A stretch of 64,000 nucleotides of DNA, taken from positions 2,839 through 66,838 of the forward strand of contig JBIKVS010000001.1 in assembly GCA_044356725.1 (NCBI GenBank), in the 5' to 3' direction. This DNA comes from Minisyncoccia bacterium (GTDB lineage: Bacteria; Patescibacteriota; Minisyncoccia; SW-4-49-11). Shown piece by piece: positions 2,390-52,610 of the stretch. Under the pieces are notes generated by a model. The model was not told the DNA's origin and searched no databases. It saw nothing but the letters and a program-made list of their open reading frames with translations. The position numbers and the translations under genes were made by a program. Each line of letters begins with the position of its first letter. The stretch's first letter is position 1.

Positions 2390-3295
2390 ATGTCAGAAGT
2401 AGCATTAGAAGTAAAAGGACTTTATAAAACTTATAAAGATGGTAAGGTGAAGGCTTTGAATGGTGTAGACTTGACTATTTATAAGGGTGAAATTTTTGGG
2501 CTTTTGGGTCCAAATGGAGCGGGGAAGTCTACTCTTATTAATGTGCTTACAACTCTTGCTAATAAGACATCTGGAGAGATTACAGTTAATGGGGTGGACT
2601 TTGCTAAATTTCCTTCCGAGGCTAAGACTTATCTTGGAGTGGTGCCTCAGGAGTTTAACTTTAATTGGTTTGAAAAGGTAGAGGATATTGTCGTTCAGCA
2701 AGCAGGTTTTTATGGTATGCCAGCTAAGGAGGCTAAAGAGAGGGCTGAAATTTTACTCAAACGATTAGGGCTCTGGGATAAAAAAGATACAGTTTCGATG
2801 AAATTATCTGGTGGGATGAAGAGGCGATTAATGATTGTCCGGGCTCTAATCCATAAACCAGAGATTTTGATTCTGGATGAGCCCTCCGCAGGAGTGGATG
2901 TGGACTTGAGGCGCGAGATGTGGGAATTTGTAAGAGAGCTCAATCAGGAAGGAGTGACTATTATCCTGACCACTCATTATCTAGAAGAGGCGGAGAATCT
3001 TTGCGATAGAGTTGGGATTATTAATAAAGGTAATATTGTTGAAGTAGGTACGGTGAAGGAGTTATTGTCTGAGCTCAAAAAAGATACTTTGATACTAGAT
3101 GTAGTAGGGGAGTTAGGAGCTTTGCCGGATAGATATAGGCTGAAAGATGATGGTATACTAGAGACGGATTTGTTACATGGTGAGGATTTGTATACTATTA
3201 CTAATGAACTCCATAGCAAGGGGTTGCAGGTGACAGGGATTAGGAATAAGACTAACCGCTTAGAAGAGGTATTTATTAATAAAGTTAATCAATAA
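2390..3295 (+). CDS. ABC transporter ATP-binding protein.
   Basis: Walker A GPNGAGKST, ABC signature LSGGMKRR and Walker B ILILDEPSAGVD. Confidence 0.9.
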   Translation: MSEVALEVKGLYKTYKDGKVKALNGVDLTIYKGEIFGLLGPNGAGKSTLINVLTTLANKTSGEITVNGVDFAKFPSEAKTYLGVVPQEFNFNWFEKVEDIVVQQAGFYGMPAKEAKERAEILLKRLGLWDKKDTVSMKLSGGMKRRLMIVRALIHKPEILILDEPSAGVDVDLRREMWEFVRELNQEGVTIILTTHYLEEAENLCDRVGIINKGNIVEVGTVKELLSELKKDTLILDVVGELGALPDRYRLKDDGILETDLLHGEDLYTITNELHSKGLQVTGIRNKTNRLEEVFINKVNQ

Positions 3296-3296
3296 T

Positions 3297-4067
3297 ATGA
3301 AGGCTCCAGTTTTTACACCATTATATACTATTATTAGAAAAGAGTTAATTCGTATTATTAGAATTTGGCCACAAACTTTGTTGCCTTCGGTGATTACGAC
3401 TAGTTTATATTTTTTGATTTTTGGGTCTTTTGTAGGCTCTCAGATTAGAGATATTGAAGGGATTAGTTATATGCAGTTTATAGTCCCTGGACTTGTGATG
3501 ATGGCTATTATTACTAATTCTTTTATGAATGTGGTGGGGTCATTCTTTGGGGCTAAATTTGGTAAAAGTATTGAGGAGTTACTAGTCTCTCCAACTCCTA
3601 ATTGGGTAATTGTCTGGGGTTATGTAGTCGGTGGTATGGCACGAGGTTTGGGGGTTGGAATCCTTGTGCTAATAGTGGCTTTGGCCTTCACTAATTTAGA
3701 GGTTATGAATATCTGGGCGGTTTTGATGTTCTCAATTTTGACTGCTATGGTTTTCTCTCTAGGAGGATTATTGAATGCTATCTTTGCTAAAAAATTTGAC
3801 CATACAGCTATTATCCCAACTTTTGTACTGACTCCGCTTACTTATCTTGGGGGAGTATTCTATTCAGTGAATGCTTTACCAGAATTTTGGCAAAATATAT
3901 CTAAGTTTAATCCGATTCTATATATGGTTAATGGATTTAGATTTGGATTTTTTGGAGTTACTGATGTCTCAATTACAATCTCAGTTGTAATCTTGGTTAT
4001 GCTAGTCTTGATACTGTCTATAACTGATGTGATGCTCCTGAGAAAAGGTGTGGGGTTGAGGAGTTAG
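3297..4067 (+). CDS. ABC-2 type transporter permease.
   Basis: 6-TM profile; translationally coupled to the ATPase (gap of 1 nt). Confidence 0.7.
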   Translation: MKAPVFTPLYTIIRKELIRIIRIWPQTLLPSVITTSLYFLIFGSFVGSQIRDIEGISYMQFIVPGLVMMAIITNSFMNVVGSFFGAKFGKSIEELLVSPTPNWVIVWGYVVGGMARGLGVGILVLIVALAFTNLEVMNIWAVLMFSILTAMVFSLGGLLNAIFAKKFDHTAIIPTFVLTPLTYLGGVFYSVNALPEFWQNISKFNPILYMVNGFRFGFFGVTDVSITISVVILVMLVLILSITDVMLLRKGVGLRS

Positions 4068-8010: not shown

Positions 8011-9612
8011 ATGACATATAACCTATTCAGTACGATTGTTATAACAATAAACATAGCATTATTACTTTTGATTTTAGGTGGTAAATCCAAAGGTAGAATC
8101 TTTAGTATAACCATACTGGGGGCAATAATCTGGGCAATAGCTATAAACCTTTTATATTATGATGTAATTTTAAATTCTTATCAAACGACTTCTATATATC
8201 TTATGAGAATATCTTTCTGGGGTGCTCTCATAACAGTCTTAGGTTTAAATTTATTTGAACAGCAATATTTAAGATCTAAAAGTAATAGTATCTTAATATA
8301 CATTATTAGTACACTTATAGCGGGTATTATTTTTATATTTACTCCATTAATAGTAAAAGAAGTTGAGTTAAATGAATCATTCAGTTATATAGTATCATAT
8401 GGACTTTTATATCCATTATTTACAATCTCATTTATATATTTATTTTTAAATCCTTATATCCGGATATTACATAGATTTTTTACAACCAAAAGGAAAGTCG
8501 AAAAATCTCAACTTAGATTTTTTGTAATTGGAATTTCACTTAGTTTTTGGATTGGATTATTTACCAATTTGATTTATCCAGTCATCTTTGGCTCTTCTGA
8601 TTTATCCAGATTTGGACCTTTAGGTATGGTTTTTGTTGGTATATTCACAACTTATGCTATTTTTAAACATCATTTGTTTAATATAAAAATGATTCTATCA
8701 GAAATTCTTTTGGGGGTTATGGGGATTGTATTGTTTATTTATATTTTCCTTTCCCGTAGTTTGACTGAAATTATAGTTAGTATTATATTTTTTATTATTT
8801 TTGTTGTATTGGGATATAATTTGCTGAAAGAATTATTAAGTGGAATTAAAAGAGAAAAAGAGTTGGATATATCGAATAGAAAGTTAGCGGAGACTATAGA
8901 ATCTAAGGATTTGTTTTTGAGAATGACTTCTCATCAACTGAGAACTCCGCTTACCTCTTTAAATGGGTTTTTATCTCTTATTTTAGAGCAATGGCAAGGT
9001 AAATATAAAATGAATGATTATACTAAAGATGATATTGTAAAAGTATATATTAATGTGCAACGATTAGTTGAATTAGTTAATGATGTGCTTGCTCTAAATA
9101 CAATTAAAGCTGGAAGGTTTGGAATTGTATTTAGACCTAATATTGATATTAAAGAGGAATTAAGTTATCTAATTCAAGATAATAAATATATGCTTGAGCA
9201 TTTTAATACTAAAGTTATCATGAAAAGCGTAGGAGAAAACTTTATCGCTGATGTAGATAGTGTTAGAATGAAAAGTGTATTTCAAAATTTATTATCTAAT
9301 GCTATCTATTATGGTAAAGATAAAATTTGGGTTACTTTAATTGATGAGGGGGATCGACTTAGAATCCGTTTTAGGGATAATGGCAATGGTATTGATGTGA
9401 ATATAAGGGACAAAATTTTTAATCCTGGTTTTAGGGCTGGGGTTTATGATGAAAGAAATCCTAATGGTTCTGGTTTTGGATTGTTTATATCAAAAGAAAT
9501 TATTACTATGCATAAAGGTTCATTGAAGTTAAAAGATTCTGGAGTAGATAAGGGCTCGTTATTTGAAATAAAATTACCTAAAAAACCTCCAATTGATAAA
9601 TATAATAACTAA
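8011..9612 (+). CDS. Sensor histidine kinase with an N-terminal multi-TM (7TMR-like) sensor domain.
   Basis: H-box MTSHQLRTPLTSLNGF; HATPase_c motifs DNGNGID and GSGFGLFISKEI. No response regulator is adjacent. Confidence 0.75.
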   Translation: MTYNLFSTIVITINIALLLLILGGKSKGRIFSITILGAIIWAIAINLLYYDVILNSYQTTSIYLMRISFWGALITVLGLNLFEQQYLRSKSNSILIYIISTLIAGIIFIFTPLIVKEVELNESFSYIVSYGLLYPLFTISFIYLFLNPYIRILHRFFTTKRKVEKSQLRFFVIGISLSFWIGLFTNLIYPVIFGSSDLSRFGPLGMVFVGIFTTYAIFKHHLFNIKMILSEILLGVMGIVLFIYIFLSRSLTEIIVSIIFFIIFVVLGYNLLKELLSGIKREKELDISNRKLAETIESKDLFLRMTSHQLRTPLTSLNGFLSLILEQWQGKYKMNDYTKDDIVKVYINVQRLVELVNDVLALNTIKAGRFGIVFRPNIDIKEELSYLIQDNKYMLEHFNTKVIMKSVGENFIADVDSVRMKSVFQNLLSNAIYYGKDKIWVTLIDEGDRLRIRFRDNGNGIDVNIRDKIFNPGFRAGVYDERNPNGSGFGLFISKEIITMHKGSLKLKDSGVDKGSLFEIKLPKKPPIDKYNN

Positions 9613-29042: not shown

Positions 29043-29151
29043 AGGCGACTGGAAGGTCGCCCCTACAATTCATAATTAACATTAATCCACCACCGGCACT
29101 TCGTGCCACCTCCTCCAAAGGAGGACAGAAAGAATTCACAATTCATAATTA
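29043..29151. repeat. GC-rich repeat cluster. A type-1 hairpin GGCGAC-N6-GTCGCC-CCTAC lies at 29043-29066. A 61-bp double-hairpin element (GGCAC-TTC-GTGCC and CCTCC-TCCAAA-GGAGG) at 29079-29139 is flanked by 12-bp direct repeats AATTCATAATTA at 29067-29078 and 29140-29151.
   Basis: Copies of both motifs recur at 40372-40500 and 51434-51462. Confidence 0.6.
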
Positions 29152-35372: not shown

Positions 35373-37409
35373 TTATTCAATAACACTATAATCTTGAGAT
35401 CGAGAAACCTCCTGTAAGGGTCTTCCTCCAGATTGGAAGAATTTACTAAAGAATTCTACAAAGTGCAATCTACCTACATTGATATAAGTACCTAAGACAT
35501 TCAGAGCAATATTAAATATATTTCCTGCTACAAAAATAACAATCATAATAATATATCCAATAACAATCCAAGCACCACCTTTTTCTACTAATCCGCTACC
35601 AGCTAGGTTTGCTAAGGTTCCTACTACTCCAGCAATAATTCCAGTTGCAAGACCTAGAGCAACTAACCTAGTATAAGATAGTATATCTGACAAATATCCT
35701 ACTACTCCAAAAAATACATCATAGGCTCCTTTACCAAACTTAGCAAATATAGACTTCATATCTCTACCCAAAAGATATATCATTGTAAATACATAGCCAA
35801 TATATATATATATCAGAGGATCAATGAGTAATTGAAGTCCATTTCCTAATAATCCAAAATTAATAAGCAATAATAATATTCCAAAGATCAAAGCTAAAGC
35901 CCAAAGAATAGAATCTAGACTAGCATCCCAGAATGACTTTTGATTGAATGCTTGTACAATGTTGAGAGATAACCCAAATAAAAGATGAATAACTCCAAGT
36001 ACAATAGTGAATCCCATCAAAGCAATTACACTGTCCATAGGATTGATAACTTGTAATTGCTGTAAGAAAGGAATTAAACCAATAGTAATTAAGAATTTCA
36101 TATGGGGTGATGCTGTATCAGGATCAACTCCATCGGGAGTAATTCCAAACCAACTACCAAATAAAGCTCCTACAATCAAAGTAGAGATAGAAGCAATAAA
36201 CACTACTGCAAAAATATCTCTTACACCTGATTTTAATCTAGAATTTAATAATCCAAGCCCAGTCAAAATAATTAGAATCAGCGCATATCCAGCCTCAGAT
36301 AAAGCTAATCCGAACATAAAGGTGAAGAATATAGCAATAGATAAAGTCGGATCAATTTTGCCAGCCTGCGGATAACCCATAATTTTTGTTACAGTTTCAA
36401 AATGTCTTACAATAGGCAAGTTTTTGAATATAACTGGAGTGTCTTCAGATACAGATGGTAATTCTACAATTTTAATATCATTTGAAATGTCTAAAATATC
36501 TTTTTTATATAAATTAAACTTTTCTTCATCTACCCATAACTTTATAGAAGAATTTGTTTCAGATTCTGGATTAAAAGAATGTAAATAAGAAATCAAATTT
36601 AGTTGAGAATTTAATACATCTGCTAAAATAGCCAAATCCTTGAGCTGAATAGGGGATTTTTTGAGCTCAAGATTTATTTTATTGATGATTTTGGCATTAA
36701 CACTAAATTCTTGTTTACTTTTATGATAAATATCATAAAAAGATCCTGTAACTTCAGCTGGAAATTGAATGAAGGTAGCTTGATTTTGAATTATATCTAG
36801 TCCAATTTTAACCTGATTTTTTGAAACGGCTAAAATATAAACATAATCAGTCCCAATTTTTTTAACAGACTCCAATACAATAGGAGATAAACTTTGCTCC
36901 AACTGCTCTACTAAATAATGGGCTCTAGATTCATCAACTAAAAATGGTAAAAATTTAATATAAGAATAGGGTTTAAAAATATTAAGTTCGATGTCTTTTA
37001 GAGGTTCTGATTTAGCAATAATATCTTGTAAAACTTCTTGTCTAGTTGTTAAATCATCTTTCAGTCCAGCTTTTTCTACAATCTCTTGAGCTTTTTTGAT
37101 AATTTCTCCTTGCTCTGTATTATAATGTTCAAAAATGTCTTCAGTGATTAAAAATCTATCATCTAACACAGCTGAGAACATGGATTTTTTAACAGTATGA
37201 TACCCTTTGTATATATCCAAAGATTTATTTACTATATCTAGATTTTCTAATAGATCCTCTTGTTTATGTAAATAATTTTTAGCTAAAGGAGTTCTTTCTA
37301 GTTTTTCTATAATTTCTCCAACTTGACGCTTTTGAATATAAGCTAATAAGTTTAATTGAGTATTGTTTGGAACAGTGATTTGAATTAGTTTAGACGCTTG
37401 AACTCCCAT
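35373..37409 (-). CDS. atpI: V/A-type ATPase subunit I (a).
   Basis: 678 aa, with a soluble N-terminal half and a multi-TM C-terminal half. Confidence 0.8.
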   Translation of the reverse strand: MGVQASKLIQITVPNNTQLNLLAYIQKRQVGEIIEKLERTPLAKNYLHKQEDLLENLDIVNKSLDIYKGYHTVKKSMFSAVLDDRFLITEDIFEHYNTEQGEIIKKAQEIVEKAGLKDDLTTRQEVLQDIIAKSEPLKDIELNIFKPYSYIKFLPFLVDESRAHYLVEQLEQSLSPIVLESVKKIGTDYVYILAVSKNQVKIGLDIIQNQATFIQFPAEVTGSFYDIYHKSKQEFSVNAKIINKINLELKKSPIQLKDLAILADVLNSQLNLISYLHSFNPESETNSSIKLWVDEEKFNLYKKDILDISNDIKIVELPSVSEDTPVIFKNLPIVRHFETVTKIMGYPQAGKIDPTLSIAIFFTFMFGLALSEAGYALILIILTGLGLLNSRLKSGVRDIFAVVFIASISTLIVGALFGSWFGITPDGVDPDTASPHMKFLITIGLIPFLQQLQVINPMDSVIALMGFTIVLGVIHLLFGLSLNIVQAFNQKSFWDASLDSILWALALIFGILLLLINFGLLGNGLQLLIDPLIYIYIGYVFTMIYLLGRDMKSIFAKFGKGAYDVFFGVVGYLSDILSYTRLVALGLATGIIAGVVGTLANLAGSGLVEKGGAWIVIGYIIMIVIFVAGNIFNIALNVLGTYINVGRLHFVEFFSKFFQSGGRPLQEVSRSQDYSVIE

Positions 37410-37756: not shown

Positions 37757-38317
37757 TTATTTTGGCCAATTATCTGGATGTAGGGAGTCTAATTGCCAAT
37801 TAATAGGGTTATTTATAATATAATTTTGAACTCTCAACAAATCAGTTTCATTACGAATAATATGGTCATAGAAAGATTTTTGCCAAAATGTATTATATTT
37901 ATTTATTATATTTTTCGTAGAGTCGGCGACCTCGCCGACATTATGATTATTGTATTTTTTTACATTCCTCAATGATATTTGTTTAAAACTAGAGATTATG
38001 TCTCCCAAAGAAACTTTTTTATTAGTAGCTAAAGAATATGAATTTTTGTCTATACCAATTATTCCATGAAAATGATTTGGCATTAATACATATCTATCTA
38101 ATTTAATATTAGAATAATACTTTGGTATATCAAGCCAAGTACTTTCTACAATATTTCCAATATTATTTAATTTAAATTTATAAACATCTTCGATATATGT
38201 CGGCGTGGTCGCCGACTCTACGAAAATACATTTCATATCATAGACACATATAGTCACAAAATACCAATAACCCCCAAGATATAATTCTTTTGACAATCTG
38301 TGTCGTTGTCTTTTCAT
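37757..38317 (-). CDS. REP-associated tyrosine transposase (RAYT / IS200-like TnpA_REP) with two in-frame REP-like insertions.
   Basis: YLGGYWYFVTI (compare Y.GG.W.FT in RAYTs); HuH motif YVLMPNHFHGII; C-terminal WQKSFYDHIIRNETDLLRVQNYIINNP (compare WQPRFWEHAIRN...YI.NP). Confidence 0.7.
   Translation of the reverse strand: MKRQRHRLSKELYLGGYWYFVTICVYDMKCIFVESATTPTYIEDVYKFKLNNIGNIVESTWLDIPKYYSNIKLDRYVLMPNHFHGIIGIDKNSYSLATNKKVSLGDIISSFKQISLRNVKKYNNHNVGEVADSTKNIINKYNTFWQKSFYDHIIRNETDLLRVQNYIINNPINWQLDSLHPDNWPK
37916..37943. repeat. REP-like palindrome TCGTAGAGTCGGCG-ACCT-CGCCGACAT inside the RAYT coding sequence, encoding NVGEVADST.
   Basis: Codons mapped one by one. The same unit occurs at 40507-40534 and 51401-51427. 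Confidence 0.7.
38195..38224. repeat. Second REP-like palindrome ATGTCGGCG-TGGT-CGCCGACTCTACGAA inside the RAYT coding sequence, in the opposite orientation, encoding FVESATTPTY.
   Basis: Codons mapped one by one. Confidence 0.7.
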
Positions 38318-38329
38318 ATAAAGTACTTT

Positions 38330-39802
38330 CTACACAAAGAATTTTCTTCGGATTTCTTCGTCTTGGGCTTTTTGCTTTTCTTCAATTAGGTTTATAGCCT
38401 TAATTTTGAGGTCTTTTAGGTCTTGTGTGGCAAGTGCTTGGGATTGTGATTTTAGATATTCAACATTATTTTTAGTAGGGTCTTCTAGTATTTCAGCTAA
38501 CAGTACATTTAGAATCATACCAATCAGTGGGCCAGGTTTGATATTTAGTTCATTTATCAAAATATTCCCATCAATTTTGAGCATAGATAAATCTATTGGG
38601 TCTAATAAAACCTTTTCAGTCATATATTCAAAGTGACGTAGGCGATAGGGACGGGCCTTCGGGGTTCCTGATCCTATACGGTCACATTCTCTTAGTTTAA
38701 TCAAATCTTTGATATTTTCTACTCCTACATTACGAATTAATTTGCGAATTGAGGCTTCTGTTACTTCATTAGTATCATAGTAAAACATATGGTATCTGAC
38801 CAACTTAGAGATTCTAGCTGCAAGCTTTTTGGGATAATGTAGTCTATTCAAAATCTCATAGGCCATACTAGCTCCTACTATTTCATGATTATGAAAGGTA
38901 CAAGTTTTCCCAGTCCCTTCTTTAGTTCGTGGTTTAGCAATATCGTGTAGTAAGCCGGCCATTCTAAGGTCAAAACTCCAATCCATATCACAAGCATGTT
39001 GCATAGTGCGAAGTAAATGCTCCCATACATCATAAATATGATGTCCATTTTGTTCTACTCCAATACCTTCTTCTAATTCAGGCATAATAGAGGGGAGTAG
39101 ATGGCTATTTTTAAGTAAAACATACCCTTGCATTGCTCTTGGGGCCTGTATCATTTTGGTGAGTTCGTCGCGAATTCGCTCTTGAGCAATATGTTCTAGA
39201 TTAGGAGCTAGATTTTGTATTGCTTGTAAGGTGTGAGGTTCAATTGTGAAATCTAATTGGATGGCAAATCTCACTGCTCTCATTAATCTCAAGGCATCTT
39301 CATTGAATCTATCTTGGGGTTCTCCGACGGTTCGGATAATTTTAGCGTGCAGGTCATCTAATCCTCCAAAAAAATCTTGAATTTCACCTTGTCTATTCAT
39401 TGCAAGAGCATTGACTGTAAAGTCTCTACGAGCTAAATCTTGGGATAGTTCGGATACAAACTCGACTTGTTCAGGATGGCGATTATCTGTGTATTGAGAT
39501 TCTTTACGATAGGTAGTGACTTCAATTATCTCCACTGATTCGTCTGGTTTGCGGTATTTGACTCCCACTGTTCCAAAAGTATTCTCATATACAGAGTCGG
39601 GGAATAGCTCTTGAATTTGTTCAGGTAGGGCATTGGTAGTAATGTCCCAATCTACGGGAGTTTTATTCCCCAAAAGTAAATCTCTAACACTACCACCGAC
39701 GATAAAAGCCTCAAAGCCAGCTTCCTCTAAGGTATGGAGGATAAAAAGTATATGATTCGGTATATTATAATTCATAAAATTTTTGCTAAATTGTGGAGCC
39801 AA
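38330..39802 (-). CDS. cca: CCA-adding tRNA nucleotidyltransferase (polymerase-beta head plus HD domain).
   Basis: GGSVRDLLLG...DWDITT head motif; HD motif LHDIAKP. The listed start overlaps the tRNA; the Met at 39775 (MNYNIPNH) is the more likely start. Confidence 0.75.
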   Translation of the reverse strand: MAPQFSKNFMNYNIPNHILFILHTLEEAGFEAFIVGGSVRDLLLGNKTPVDWDITTNALPEQIQELFPDSVYENTFGTVGVKYRKPDESVEIIEVTTYRKESQYTDNRHPEQVEFVSELSQDLARRDFTVNALAMNRQGEIQDFFGGLDDLHAKIIRTVGEPQDRFNEDALRLMRAVRFAIQLDFTIEPHTLQAIQNLAPNLEHIAQERIRDELTKMIQAPRAMQGYVLLKNSHLLPSIMPELEEGIGVEQNGHHIYDVWEHLLRTMQHACDMDWSFDLRMAGLLHDIAKPRTKEGTGKTCTFHNHEIVGASMAYEILNRLHYPKKLAARISKLVRYHMFYYDTNEVTEASIRKLIRNVGVENIKDLIKLRECDRIGSGTPKARPYRLRHFEYMTEKVLLDPIDLSMLKIDGNILINELNIKPGPLIGMILNVLLAEILEDPTKNNVEYLKSQSQALATQDLKDLKIKAINLIEEKQKAQDEEIRRKFFV

Positions 39803-39870
39803 TGGTGGGGATCGAACCCACGACCTATGCGTTACGAATGCATTGCTCTACCAGACTAAGCTACATTGGC
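39794..39870 (-). tRNA. tRNA-Thr (anticodon CGU) with an encoded CCA.
   Basis: Hand-folded cloverleaf: acceptor GCCAATG/CATTGGC, T-arm GTGGG-TTCGATC-CCCAC, anticodon loop TTCGTAA. There is an A31-C39 mismatch. Confidence 0.65.
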
Positions 39871-39910: not shown

Positions 39911-39944
39911 ATAAATAAAAAAGCCCCGCTTAACTTGGCGGGGT
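39911..39944 (-). terminator. Terminator hairpin GCCCCGC-TTAACTTG-GCGGGGT.
   Basis: Member of the recurring CCCCGC...GCGGGG hairpin family. Confidence 0.45.
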
Positions 39945-40247
39945 TGAATGAGTATGATTTGAGGGGTTCAATCTAGATAATTGATTTATCAATGAAAATA
40001 TATTTTCACTTAATATAACTTTAACTTTGTTATCACCTTTATTTATAATGCAATTTCTTTGAATAGCTCTTATTGCTGAATTAATGCTATTAACATCAGC
40101 TCCAGTATGACATACTCTATATATAAACTCATTTGATCTTTTTTTCTTATGACCTTTTAAATTTTTTCGAGATTCTTTCTTAAATATTTTAGCTTCTTTC
40201 AACAAATGTATTATATGCTGCCATTGTCTATGAGAATATTCACACAA
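39930..40247 (-). CDS. Small hypothetical protein.
   Basis: ORF only. Confidence 0.25.
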   Translation of the reverse strand: MCEYSHRQWQHIIHLLKEAKIFKKESRKNLKGHKKKRSNEFIYRVCHTGADVNSINSAIRAIQRNCIINKGDNKVKVILSENIFSLINQLSRLNPSNHTHSTPPS

Positions 40248-40371: not shown

Positions 40372-40536
40372 CAGTCCTCCTCCGTCACCTACGGTGCCAC
40401 CTCCCCCAAGGGAGGACAGTTCTTATTTTGTCTCCCTTTTTAACTGCCGTAAGTAGTTGGAGGGAGTACCCGTGGGGGGCAACAGAAGGTCGCCCCTACG
40501 AAAATTATGTCGGCGTGGCGCCGACTCTACGAATAG
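40372..40536. repeat. Mosaic GC-rich repeat cluster. In order: the double-hairpin element (GGTGCCACCTCCCCCAAGGGAGGACAG), a degenerate type-1 hairpin ending AGGTCGCCCCTACGAAA, and the REP palindrome ATGTCGGCG-TGG-CGCCGACTCTACGAAT at 40507-40534.
   Basis: Aligned by eye to the copies at 29043-29151, 37916-38224 and 51401-51462. Confidence 0.65.
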
Positions 40537-40560
40537 TGCAAGGATAAACCCTCCGCTACG

Positions 40561-40594
40561 AGAAAAAGAAAAAAGCCCCGCTGAGTGCGGGGCT
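40561..40594 (-). terminator. Terminator AGCCCCGC-TGAGT-GCGGGGCT for the 40612..41196 gene.
   Basis: 8-bp GC stem plus an A-tract on the plus strand. Confidence 0.55.
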
Positions 40595-40611
40595 TGGGTG
40601 AGTGAGAGCGA

Positions 40612-49915: not shown

Positions 49916-51334
49916 TTGTATAAAGTAAAAATAATAAATATGAATGGCTCAAATATGAAAAAACAGAGTAAAGGTTTTACACTCCTAGAAATACTTTTAA
50001 CTATAATGCTAATTGGGATATTAGCAACAATAGTACTTGTAGCAATAAATCCTAATAAACAGATCTCACAATCAAGAAATCTTGTTAGAAAGGCAGATAT
50101 AAATAGTATATATAATGCTTTGCAGCAATACAACGCTGTTAATAGAGGGGTTTCAAATTTCAATATATCCAATAATTATACTGAGATATGTGATACAGGA
50201 AGTCTTACTACAGAAGATAGTCTGCCAAGTACAAACTATTGTGATGGTAAAATTGACTTAAGAGCATTAGTTCCTACGTATTTAATTGAAATTCCAAAAG
50301 ATACTGATACTTCATTAGGTGGTACCGGATATGAACTAGCAAAGGATTCTAATAATCAGACTAGCTTAAGGTCTAATAAAGAAGAGCTGTCTCAGATTGT
50401 AGCAATAAATCCACTGCCAACCCCCGAAGAATTAATTCAAGCTCAGATAGCGGCAGGGACATTAATACCAACAGGGACACAACAATTAGTCTTAGATAGA
50501 TTAGTATATAAGAACAATGCAGGAACTCAGACATATATAGATAAGTCCACAACTACAAGAACCTGTCCAGCTAATTATATTCCAGTCCCAGGGAATAGTA
50601 TGTATGGAACTAGTGACTTTTGTGTAATGAAGTACGAAGCTAAAACAGGGTCCGCCACAGTTTCAGCCACAACACAAACAGCAGGAAACCCACAAGTAAA
50701 TATAACTCAACCAAATGCCATCACAGCCTGTAGTTTAAACGGAGCAGGATATGGACTAATCAATAATAATGAATGGATGACCATAGCCAGGAATATAGAA
50801 GGACAAGGAGTCAACTGGACAGGAGGAGCAGTAGGCAGTGGAGGTTTATGGCGAGGACATAGTGATGGAAGTCCAAATAATGTATTAGCAGCAAGTACAG
50901 ATGACAATGATCCATACTTTGGAACAGGAAACACCAGTCCAAGCATAGAGAGAAGAACCCATACCTTAAGTAATGGAGGAGTAATCTGGGACTTAAGTGG
51001 GAATGTCTGGGAATTTACCAATAATACCATATTAGGAAAAGACCAACCAACAGGAACTACTCCAGGATTTAATTGGAGACAATATACAGCAATAACTAAT
51101 TATGGAACTTTAAGTTATGACCTAACCCACCCAAGTAATACTAGATGGAACAGTAGTCAGAATATGGGACAAATATACAGTGATGGAACAAGTACTAACA
51201 ATACAACTTTCGCCTTCATCCGCGGTGGTGATTGGGATGGTGCTGATACTACTGCAGGAGTATTTACTCTTCGCCTTCATCTTACTCCCGCCTCTACGTT
51301 TACTAGTATTGGCTTCCGCTGCGTTCTGCGCTGA
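49916..51334 (+). CDS. Type IV pilin-like protein with a C-terminal FGE-sulfatase (formylglycine-generating-enzyme family) domain. Likely start at the Met at 49955 (MKKQSKGFTLLE).
   Basis: Class III signal KGFTLLEILLTIMLIGILATIV. C-terminal WDLSGNVWEF...IRGGDWDG...IGFRCVLR, compare YDMSGNVWEW...RGGSW...GFRCA. Confidence 0.6.
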   Translation: MYKVKIINMNGSNMKKQSKGFTLLEILLTIMLIGILATIVLVAINPNKQISQSRNLVRKADINSIYNALQQYNAVNRGVSNFNISNNYTEICDTGSLTTEDSLPSTNYCDGKIDLRALVPTYLIEIPKDTDTSLGGTGYELAKDSNNQTSLRSNKEELSQIVAINPLPTPEELIQAQIAAGTLIPTGTQQLVLDRLVYKNNAGTQTYIDKSTTTRTCPANYIPVPGNSMYGTSDFCVMKYEAKTGSATVSATTQTAGNPQVNITQPNAITACSLNGAGYGLINNNEWMTIARNIEGQGVNWTGGAVGSGGLWRGHSDGSPNNVLAASTDDNDPYFGTGNTSPSIERRTHTLSNGGVIWDLSGNVWEFTNNTILGKDQPTGTTPGFNWRQYTAITNYGTLSYDLTHPSNTRWNSSQNMGQIYSDGTSTNNTTFAFIRGGDWDGADTTAGVFTLRLHLTPASTFTSIGFRCVLR

Positions 51335-51400
51335 GGGGCAACTGGCTCCTCTGCCTAAGTTAGACAACTCTGGGAGCCAGTGAGCTCAGTAATTCGTCAT

Positions 51401-51462
51401 TCGTAGAGTCGGCGCCCCCGCCGACATTTACATTTCGTAGGGGCGACCTGCCAGTCGCCTGC
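51401..51462. repeat. REP palindrome TCGTAGAGTCGGCG-CCCC-CGCCGACAT followed by a type-1 hairpin (GTAGGGGCGAC-CTGCCA-GTCGCCTG) in the pilin/pgk intergenic region.
   Basis: Aligned to the copies at 37916 and 40507, and to 29043 in reverse orientation. Confidence 0.65.
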
Positions 51463-51539: not shown

Positions 51540-52610
51540 ATGAGATATATCAAAGATTATAAAAACCTATTAAAGGGTAAGCGAGTTTTAGTTAGAATTG
51601 ATGTCAATGAACCTGTAGACGCACAGGGTTATCCTCAAGATACTTTTCGTATACAAAGATCTCTAGAGACTATTAATTTCCTAAGAGAGGCGGGGGCTAA
51701 GATTGTTCTGATAGCTCACTTAGGAGATCCACAAGAAAAAGGGCGAGAAAGTTTGTCTTTAGAGCCAATTTCTAAAGTACTGGGAGAACTTGGTGAATTT
51801 GGGGTTAAGTTTATGTCTGAGAATGTTGATAGCATAGATATGAATATAGTCAATAATTTGGCAAATGGAGAGGTTGTCCTTTTAGAAAATCTTAGATTTG
51901 ATTCTAGAGAAGAAGAGAATAGTCTTGAATTTGCTCAAAAACTAGCTCAATTTGGGGATTTATATGTGAGTGATGCTTTTTCAGTGATGCATCGTCAACA
52001 TAGCTCAGTAGTAGCTATTACAGAGATTTTGCCATCCTTTGGTGGGATAGTTTTGGAACAGGAGTTAGATGCTTTGAATCATATATTAGATAATCCAGCT
52101 AAGCCAGCAGTAGCTATTATTGGTGGGGCAAAAATAGCTACTAAATTACCAGTTATCCAGACTTTAGAGTCAATTTTTGATTATATTCTTGTTGGAGGTA
52201 AAATTGCTAATGAATATATTGATGAATATGGTGTAGCTCAAAGTGAGAAAATTCTTTTGCCTGTAGATTTTGTTGAGACAGAGCGTTATGATATTGGACC
52301 TAAAACTATAGAACTATTTGCTGATTATATCTCTCAAGCCTCGACTGTTATTTGGAACGGCCCAATGGGTTGGTTTGAGAAAAAACCTTATGATGAAGGT
52401 ACAAGATATATAGCTCAATCTATTGCTAAAAATGAATCTAGTTACTCAGTTATAGGTGGCGGGGAGACTGTAGATGAGGTTCATAATTTACATCAAGAGT
52501 CTAAAATAGATTTTATTTCTACTGGTGGTGGAGCTATGTTAGAATATATAGCAACTCGAGGGCAGTTGCCTGGTGTTATTGCTTTGCAAAATAATATATT
52601 AGAAATATGA
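51540..52610 (+). CDS. pgk: Phosphoglycerate kinase.
   Basis: N-terminal GKRVLVRIDVNEPVD; ...AHLG; a Gly-rich ATP loop near the C-terminus. Confidence 0.75.
   Translation: MRYIKDYKNLLKGKRVLVRIDVNEPVDAQGYPQDTFRIQRSLETINFLREAGAKIVLIAHLGDPQEKGRESLSLEPISKVLGELGEFGVKFMSENVDSIDMNIVNNLANGEVVLLENLRFDSREEENSLEFAQKLAQFGDLYVSDAFSVMHRQHSSVVAITEILPSFGGIVLEQELDALNHILDNPAKPAVAIIGGAKIATKLPVIQTLESIFDYILVGGKIANEYIDEYGVAQSEKILLPVDFVETERYDIGPKTIELFADYISQASTVIWNGPMGWFEKKPYDEGTRYIAQSIAKNESSYSVIGGGETVDEVHNLHQESKIDFISTGGGAMLEYIATRGQLPGVIALQNNILEI

Follow-up and report, generated by a model that had tools for sequence, protein, structure and literature searches.

A 64 kb stretch of a Paceibacteria-like (Patescibacteria) genome, referred to here as the window, was found to carry a gene for a REP-associated tyrosine transposase (RAYT, or TnpA_REP) that contains two in-frame, mutually inverted copies of a repetitive extragenic palindrome (REP). 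The gene is very probably functional and chromosomally fixed, encoding an HUH/Y1 single-strand DNA endonuclease-ligase of subclass 2.4 (group 4) in which the REP pair occupies two loops. In-frame REPs inside the gene have been described as unique to subclass 2.4 (Quentin, Siguier, Chandler & Fichant, 2018, BMC Genomics 19:475; PMC6006769). The element that goes beyond this published trait is an exchange of the REP-bracketed core of the gene among seven syntenic genomes; no report of such core-allele exchange was found in the literature.

A database search returned 536 homologues of the protein. An alignment and a profile were built from 29 homologous sequences and a further alignment from nine close relatives. 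For the wider family, 80 further RAYT loci from metagenomes were collected and each gene was scanned, with 400 nt on either side, for GTAG-tagged GC-rich hairpins; the resulting set comprised 86 non-redundant loci. Relative loci (numbered L001 onwards) were examined as stretches of ~20 kb from partial genomes. The chance expectation of the palindrome was taken from 100 dinucleotide-preserving shuffles, and the type-A REP pattern defined below was scanned across the GTDB representative genomes. GC content is 27-40% along the window and 33% in the genome. The features of the gene are listed below.

37757-38317, minus strand: RAYT/TnpA_REP gene, 186 amino acids (aa), subclass 2.4-like (open reading frame list, RayT-named homologues, NCBIfam, Protein Data Bank (PDB) and fold matches).
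38195-38224, minus strand: 5' in-gene REP of type A, TTTTCGTAG-AGTCGGCG-acca-CGCCGAC-AT on the coding strand, gene nt 94-123, in the loop after beta1 (sequence, fold and model).
38066-38074, minus strand: HUH motif H82-F83-H84 within MPNHFH (invariant in the 29-homologue alignment).
37914-37943, plus strand: 3' in-gene REP of type A, inverted, with GTAG on the non-coding strand, gene nt 375-404, in the loop between helices 104-125 and 132-141 (sequence, fold and model).
37853-37885, minus strand: W145-Q146-K-S-F-Y-D-H152-I-I-R155, counterpart of the GTAG-binding W94, Q95, H101 and R104 of Escherichia coli RAYT (alignment to 4ER8; residues from Fig. S11 of Quentin, 2018).
37820-37822, minus strand: catalytic Tyr166 in YIINNP (invariant Y166; signature YIxNNP).
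37882-38223, minus strand: exchangeable core or cassette, gene nt ~95-436, with both REPs, the beta-hairpin, alpha1, the HUH strands, alpha2 and the helix before WQ (syntenic comparison).

The identification of the 186-residue product as a RAYT, proposed in a first-pass annotation of the DNA letters, was borne out by motif, profile and fold comparisons. The protein carries NHFH, WQ and YIINNP, the signature of subclass 2.4. The segment M79-P-N-H82-F-H84 is invariant in the 29 aligned homologues, with the HUH motif on strand 82-89 of the AlphaFold2 (AF2) model, and Tyr166 is invariant in the same set, YIINNP lying on helix 157-178. Trp145 and Gln146 are invariant across the 29 homologues and Arg155 nearly so; His152 is invariant in the nine close relatives. 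The profile of the 29 homologues matches E. coli TnpA_REP (PDB entry 4ER8) at 2e-5, and the profile alignment pairs IWQPRFWEHAIRN...YIYINP of 4ER8 with FWQKSFYDHIIRN...YIINNP of the window. The AF2 model has a predicted local distance difference test score (pLDDT) of 85.4 and a predicted template-modelling score (pTM) of 0.82. Its best match in a Foldseek search of the PDB was 4er8_A (E. coli RAYT bound to REP; E 3e-5), followed by ISDra2 and IS608 TnpA (E 1e-4 to 1e-3), with a probability of 1.00 throughout; sequence identity to E. coli RAYT is ~17%. The NCBIfam equivalog REP_Tyr_transpos, a model built mainly on proteobacterial members, matched with E 4.4e-17 and 62.3 bits (cut-off 80). Pfam PF01797 (Y1_Tnp) matched residues 70-170 only, with 18.8 bits (gathering threshold 23; E 0.0019), a score that is lowered by the REP-coded inserts and by divergence; several close homologues do have PF01797. 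In the model the two inserts fall in loops, the location that the first-pass annotation had suggested confirming against RayT structures: residues 33-42 form the loop after beta1 and residues 126-134 lie between helices 104-125 and 132-141. These two stretches are the lowest-confidence internal parts of the model.

The palindrome GTCGGCG-N3-4-CGCCGAC occurs exactly four times in the 64 kb (at 37922, 38199, 40509 and 51408), with 0 expected from the shuffles. All four copies are canonical GTAG-tagged REPs with a 7 bp GC stem and a 3-4 nt loop, because each is preceded on its own strand by TTCGTAGA. The consensus of this type, termed type A, is TTCGTAG-AGTCGGCG-N4-CGCCGAC in the gene, and the type-A hairpins fold as single-stranded DNA (ssDNA) with -8.7 to -9.7 kcal/mol (z -3.6 to -5.3). 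The 5' REP reads TTC GTA GAG TCG GCG ACC ACG CCG ACA TAT and is translated in frame as F-VESATTPT-Y (VESATTPT being gene nt 97-120); the 3' REP reads AAT GTC GGC GAG GTC GCC GAC TCT ACG and is translated in frame as N-VGEVADST (gene nt 378-402). The GTAG ends of the inverted pair point outward and the HUH core is bracketed between them. The two arms are complementary at 29 of 30 nt, and an RNA of 341 nt folds with the arms paired (-93 kcal/mol, z -8.2). The spacer between the two REPs is ~255 nt of coding sequence and the doublet is single-copy. The other two type-A copies (40507-40534 and 51400-51427) lie between open reading frames (ORFs). The two extra peptide segments, their origin in oppositely oriented palindromes, the preserved frame and the intergenic copies (the second placed at 51401-51427) had all been described in the first-pass annotation and stand, with coordinates right to ~2 nt.

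A matched inverted GTAG-REP pair was found at the same two loops in all clade members whose DNA was read (L001-L010, L037, L040, L071, L072, L074 and L078). The loops are kept at amino-acid identities of 42-89%, in other loci and in other classes (Saccharibacteria), and are occupied by different REPs, of at least four sequence types across the clade.

Type A: GTAGAGTCGGCG..CGCCGAC, in the window, L001-5, L037, L040 and L071/72.
Type B: GTAGCGGAGGG-tttat-CCCTCC, in L009, L010 and L074.
Type D: GTAGCGGAACC..GGTTCC, in L006-8.
Type E: GTAGAGGCGATG..CATCGCC, in L078.

Analogous peptides in the relatives are FVESAPSPT, FVAEGLSL and FVEEPLRF at the first position and GEGADST, GINPPLRN and KGSAT at the second, and the alignment shows extra residues at both loops in comparison with relatives that have no REP there. 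Some genes (L004, L040) hold 2-3 tandem REP copies at the second site. In gene pairs with a synonymous divergence (dS) above 1, 15-16 of the 16 third positions in the REP codons are identical in three of four comparisons and 12 of 16 in L072, against 48-52% in the other codons. Type-A genes keep the REP nucleotides down to 55% amino-acid identity. The ratio of nonsynonymous to synonymous divergence (dN/dS) is 0.12-0.28 in every comparison, insert neighbourhood included. The GTDB representatives with type A are Paceibacterota P_PACE2, Parcubacteria ZE-Oct18-75 (locus L037), two Saccharibacteria and one further bin, with ~3-11 exact matches each. Type-A copies outside RAYT genes were found in metagenome-assembled genomes (MAGs) of Patescibacteria that also hold type-A RAYT genes, mostly in DNA lacking a long ORF; the match between cognate REP and RAYT is shown best for type A. 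Matches to the pattern in GC-rich genomes (Actinobacteria, Planctomycetota and others) were set aside as chance or unrelated, as they lie inside long ORFs in DNA of 55-74% GC.

In the wider family, 60 of the 86 loci have at least one in-frame GTAG hairpin inside the ORF. The commonest site is just after the HUH strand (~43 loci), where a double-foot palindrome (GTAGGGAACGGTTtgaAACCGTTCCCTAC, for example) encodes VGNGLKPFPT. Thirteen loci have the arrangement of the window, in which the first REP follows beta1 and the second precedes WQ; 18 have flanking REPs only (the canonical REPtron). An extragenic REP identical to the in-gene one is present within the same short locus in 18 cases. The same scanner detected only six elements in the whole window, two of them in the RAYT gene, so the enrichment in RAYT ORFs is large. 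P0053, P0056, P0058 and similar sequences were considered as insert-free references and rejected: they carry the double-foot REP after the HUH strand (VGNGLKPFPT), and inserts are absent only at the two positions used in the window.

The order CCA-adding enzyme, RAYT, 88-aa ORF and V-type ATPase subunit I is common to seven loci (the window, L075, L001, L037, L010, L009 and L074), the housekeeping flanks of which are 71-89% identical. Two alleles of the core were distinguished (nt 95-405), A in the window, L075, L001 and L037 and B in L010, L009 and L074. The gene ends (nt 1-72 and 437-561) group the same loci otherwise, the window with L010 and L075 as against L001 with L037, L009 and L074, and all four combinations of end and core occur among the seven. 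Core identity is 96-100% within A, 87-97% within B and 45-55% between the types (53-55% for most pairs). In the core, two-state informative sites favour the grouping by REP type by 100 to 0; in the ends they favour the opposing grouping by 21 to 0. For A-A pairs dS is 0.07-0.08 in the core and 0.6-1.3 in the ends of the same genes, so the cores are far more recent than their host genomes.

At the right junction the type-specific sequence extends 27-30 nt beyond the REP and ends at the W145 codon, the start of the WQKSFYDH codons. At the left junction, L010 diverges from the window from ~22 nt upstream of GTAG; L009 and L074 combine an A-type context (DDMKCIF) with a B-type REP, changing over within ~10 nt of GTAG, where A and B share ~10 nt. 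Cassette boundaries at the REPs themselves, as in a RAYT-mediated exchange, were considered and fit only the left junction of L009 and L074, the right junction and the left junction of L010 being in conserved coding sequence; a REP-mediated mechanism is accordingly not claimed. The exchange is most simply explained by homologous recombination in the conserved gene ends.

The core and the ends may also differ in what they recognize. In the structure of E. coli RAYT, the residues that read GTAG are W94, Q95, W99, E100, H101 and R104, and the hairpin is read by K82-R98, just upstream of them. Alignment with the E. coli protein maps the GTAG-reading residues to the conserved end, outside the cassette, and the hairpin-reading helix to ~133-142, inside it. 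By this mapping the core would read the hairpin and the conserved WQ..H..R end would read the constant GTAG; the constancy of GTAG across types A to E, the stems of which differ, fits the assignment.

The extragenic REPs of the window are as follows.

40480-40560, minus strand: array in one orientation of a decayed type B (40538-40560, 3' arm broken), type A (40507-40534) and type C (~40480-40502) (sequence, folding and comparison).
51400-51462, plus strand: array in which type A (51400-51427) precedes type C (51434-51462), flanked by ORFs 49916-51334 and 51540-52610 (sequence and folding).
29044-29067, minus strand: lone type C, GTAGGGGCGAC-cttcca-GTCGCC, between convergent ORFs (sequence).

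The decayed type-B REP folds with only -0.9 kcal/mol. At the site homologous to 40480-40560, type A is missing from L074, in which C comes immediately after an intact B, and L001 shows a degenerate B together with C. The ~30 nt type-A unit (TTCGTAG..GACATAAT) is therefore an insertion in the window lineage. The gene ends of the window are closest to those of L010 (94-97%), which has a B core. Taken together, this suggests that the window lineage recently swapped a B core for an A core, after which the A copies at 40507 and 51400 appeared and the B copy decayed.

The two extragenic arrays mix GTAG-REP types (decayed B with A and C; A with C) in the same orientation, just downstream of terminator-like hairpins. 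For type C (GTAGGGGCGAC..GTCGCC), no RAYT with a type-C core is present in the 64 kb window, and the in-gene REP of locus L137 is similar. A tblastn search of the window likewise returned no second RAYT to match the type-C REPs; the gene is the only one of its kind in the 64 kb.

By analogy with the structure and biochemistry of E. coli RAYT, the enzyme likely acts as follows. The conserved WQ..H..R segment would bind the GTAG tetranucleotide and the variable core would bind the hairpin, the ssDNA being cut and rejoined by the HUH motif together with Tyr166. Cutting and rejoining would spread or maintain REPs at a low number, ~4-10 copies in each genome. Those that land in the RAYT gene itself would persist only in frame and in loops, their sequence then being kept constant at the nucleotide level. 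With the hairpin-specific core and its two REPs contiguous, recombination in the conserved gene ends could move them as one block; in the window lineage a type-A core would recently have replaced a type-B core, with the extragenic REPs turning over to match.

Several points weigh against parts of this interpretation. The Pfam Y1_Tnp and NCBIfam scores are both under their curated cut-offs, and the placement in subclass 2.4, which we consider probable, is based on the signature motifs, the length and the in-gene REP trait. Action on type-A REPs is assumed by analogy with the RAYTs of E. coli, Stenotrophomonas and Marinomonas. The window holds type-C REPs with no matching RAYT in view, and most of the ~20 kb relative loci contain no extragenic copy of their in-gene REP type. 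The B-to-A direction of the swap is drawn from one decayed REP and the similarity of the gene ends. Constraint, in place of transfer, is another conceivable cause of the low core dS, but it is countered by the four-gamete pattern.

An assembly artefact, or an effect of chance or composition, might account for the palindromes, which would then have nothing to do with REPs. A length of only 23-30 nt would allow this, but four copies stand against an expectation of none, GTAG-tagged with perfect GC-rich stems in a 33% GC genome, and the structure recurs in many MAGs and in the independent assemblies of ENA, NCBI, JGI and Logan, which disposes of the artefact raised in the first-pass annotation; such an origin is vanishingly improbable. 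That annotation had also left the choice between an enzyme that tolerates its inserts and a sporadic self-insertion that produced a cryptic, inactivated copy. The latter would account for the Pfam score under the gathering threshold and would have parallels in two damaged relatives, L037 (stop at codon 176) and L073 (broken). The ORF of the window is nevertheless intact, with invariant HUH, WQ and Tyr and a confident fold model, and orthologues at 42-89% identity carry inserts at the same positions. The dN/dS of 0.12-0.28 in all comparisons, a mark of purifying selection, leads us to reject inactivation, which we regard as highly improbable, and the tolerated-insert alternative is favoured. 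The notion of a sporadic event gives way in the same manner to the matched inverted pair, with different REPs, at the same loops in every clade member read, down to 42% identity. Of the first-pass interpretation, the RAYT, the REPs, the loops and their tolerance hold; sporadic insertion, inactivation and the belief that such an arrangement had gone undescribed do not.

The remaining alternatives concern the role of the in-gene pair. It could be a functional cis-element, either a self-mobilizing or self-regulating REP-core-REP unit, which the RAYT would excise, exchange or convert by way of the REPs, or a long-range, REPIN-like stem in ssDNA or mRNA that controls RAYT expression. Such a role would be in keeping with REP stems that show no synonymous change in an otherwise saturated gene, with the pairing of the 30 nt arms in the 341 nt fold, with the left junction of L009 and L074 close to GTAG, with the outward GTAG ends, which resemble those of the REPs flanking canonical RAYT genes (Nunvar, 2010), and with the spread of core alleles among genomes ~80% identical. 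The other junctions, however, lie 27-30 nt beyond and ~22 nt upstream of the REPs, and homologous recombination in the conserved ends would give the same junctions; an excised gene would be left without HUH; the nucleotides could be conserved just as well through gene conversion by the REP population or through repeated re-insertion; and translating ribosomes would break the long-range mRNA pairing. No empty-site allele, excised circle or second REP-core-REP copy was found. We therefore consider a cis-acting role conceivable, though unlikely. The stronger proposal that REP-core-REP is a mobile specificity cassette, in which the RAYT, by catalysing strand exchange, or replication across the hairpins, by template switching, uses the in-gene REPs as recombination sites, appears doubtful at best. 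Causality could also run the other way, the in-gene copies being protected masters that seed the extragenic REPs, so that a RAYT or core arriving by transfer would carry its substrate along and could start a fresh REP population. The in-gene copies are perfect, an unmatched extragenic type decays (the type-B remnant at 40538-40560 with its broken stem), extragenic type-A copies, few in number (two in 64 kb; ~4-8 per MAG), are seen in genomes of Paceibacteria and Saccharibacteria that have type-A RAYTs, and, compared with L074, the window has a new type-A insertion. This evidence is purely correlative, insertion from outside into the gene fits the same data, the direction of copying is unreadable from identical units of 24-30 nt, and at several loci the 20 kb contain no extragenic copy of the in-gene type; the master-copy scheme is very unlikely. 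The preferred reading remains that of a functional RAYT that carries the REP pair in two loops and the core of which has been exchanged together with that pair.

The window gene was compared with the nearest described systems. Subclass 2.4 corresponds to RAYT group 4 (Bertels, Gallie & Rainey, 2017) and is characterized by NH[IFV]H / WQ / YIxNNP, a median length of 194 aa and an HuH-Y distance of ~88 aa (PMC6006769, Table 1); in the window protein H82/H84 and Y166 are 82-84 aa apart. The variable region was placed as a peripheral extension on a homology model, and 'double foot' REPs were described, in the same study (PMC6006769). The window shares with this subclass the signature, the length of ~190 aa, the enlarged HuH-Y distance, GTAG REPs (double-foot in relatives), in-frame REPs in peripheral loops and a low copy number, the last matching the low-abundance repeats reported for group 4. 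It differs in that one REP is N-terminal of HuH and the pair brackets the core, whereas the published inserts are 'generally between HuH and Y', in the beta3/alphaC loop; in its hosts, which are Patescibacteria ('Parcubacteria' has 0 occurrences in the text of PMC6006769); and in the allelic exchange of a REP-bracketed core between syntenic genomes, which is undescribed there. In-ORF REPs go unmentioned in Nunvar 2010, Ton-Hoang 2012, Messing 2012, Corneloup 2021 and the Bertels/Rainey papers. A literature search for RAYT in the candidate phyla radiation (CPR)/Patescibacteria and for RAYT mosaicism or gene conversion gave nothing specific. The headline observation of REPs in a RAYT gene has thus already been published, and the window provides a clean, well-documented example from Patescibacteria.

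The E. coli RAYT (YafM/TnpA_REP, 4ER8) REPtron resembles the window in the HUH/Y1 fold, the GTAG hairpins, WQ..H..R, a fixed single-copy gene and inverted REPs. It belongs to group 2 (DHLH / WE / YIHYNP), and its REPs, in contrast to those of the window, are long, bulged, very abundant and outside the ORF. REPINs, the REP doublets of Bertels & Rainey (2011), have spacers of tens of nt, whereas the window spacer is ~255 nt of coding sequence and its doublet, inverted and able to pair, is single-copy; the extragenic REPs of the window are singlets in same-orientation arrays of three types and not inverted doublets. RAYT/REPIN systems have moreover been described as vertically inherited, whereas the core here moves between genomes. 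IS200/IS605 elements (IS608, ISDra2) share a homologous Y1 HUH transposase and subterminal ssDNA hairpins with a 5' guide tetranucleotide. Their hairpins, at the left and right ends (LE and RE), lie on one strand outside tnpA of multi-copy mobile elements, whereas those of the window are inverted, inside the ORF and at one syntenic position.

Palindromes in frame in protein-coding genes are not confined to RAYTs; Rickettsia palindromic elements are said, from the work of Ogata and colleagues, to be inserted in this way. In-frame GTAG REPs are known in unrelated housekeeping genes (Di Nocera et al., 2013; PMC3733652), and these intragenic GTAG/CGTC REPs are, as in the window, short palindromes that are tolerated in loops. 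The window differs from both in that the host gene encodes the enzyme that recognizes the repeat and in that the positions are conserved across the clade.

Further observations were made on relatives. Paceibacterota P_PACE2 (GCA_032117235.1) has two type-A RAYT genes, L004 10001-10678 and L040 ~3258-3920, in which the peptide GEGADSTKF is repeated (2-3 tandem REPs at the second site). The RAYT gene of L004 lies inside a type I restriction-modification cluster, between the hsdM-side genes and hsdR. L078 525-1343 and L122 2069-2788 contain in-frame low-complexity runs of repeated REP fragments (SPCESPSPCESPSP..., GDAIDGDAIDGDGG..., several NGLKPF units) in proteins of 240-273 aa. The type-A scan also returned a longer repeat, GGTAGAGTCGGCGCGCTGCGCCGACCGGACG, that recurs in several Verrucomicrobia-type MAGs (L011, L028, L044, L053, L054, L057 and L062; Verrucomicrobia and relatives) and looks like an unrelated or distantly related GTAG-REP family of GC-rich genomes.

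In all seven syntenic genomes the RAYT gene has the gene for the CCA-adding enzyme, with a tRNA-Thr (39794-39870), on one side and on the other a complete V/A-type ATPase operon, which encodes subunits I, c, A, B and D (35373-37409 and downstream in the window; 10914-19170 in L001). In the window it begins 12 nt after the CCA-adding-enzyme gene and is followed by the 88-aa ORF and the V-type ATPase operon; because only 12 nt separate it from the upstream gene, it is probably co-transcribed with housekeeping genes. An Rfam scan of the whole window gave the tRNA-Thr as its sole match, and the GC-rich intergenic block at 40380-40600 matched no family. Within this region a GC-rich block of ~50 nt (AACTGTCCTCCCTTGGGGGAGGTGGCACCGTAGGTGACGGAGGAGGAC; window 40380-40470, minus strand), upstream of a 105-aa ORF (39930-40247, minus strand), is kept in L001 (~8150-8210) amid divergent intergenic DNA. 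This block, which has no Rfam match at the gathering threshold, may be a small structured RNA or a leader.

The C-terminal tail of E. coli RAYT is auto-inhibitory. The syntenic type-A RAYT gene of L037 (2754-3278; Parcubacteria ZE-Oct18-75, CALRBF010000003.1) has an in-frame stop at codon 176 (NWE*) and has lost the last ~11 residues; in view of the auto-inhibitory tail the allele could be hyperactive, or it could be decaying. The contigs of L075 (Ga0209668_10005856, position 1) and L009 (position 1) end inside or just before the RAYT gene, L075 beginning at gene nt ~329, within the core. The assembly may have broken at these points because different core alleles coexist in the population that was sampled.

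If the in-gene REPs did delimit a mobile cassette, a hairpin reader and two seed copies of its substrate would be exchanged together, reprogramming the REP family that is maintained; the old family would decay and the new one spread, and RAYT/REP systems would be horizontally re-programmable rather than strictly vertical. The natural chimeras, with all four combinations of ends and core, point to the hairpin-reading and GTAG-reading parts of a RAYT. The decayed type-B REP beside a new type-A REP makes the turnover of a REP population after a switch in specificity directly testable. A RAYT specificity module can move between genomes that are ~80% identical, as against the prevailing picture of strictly vertical RAYT/REPIN co-evolution.

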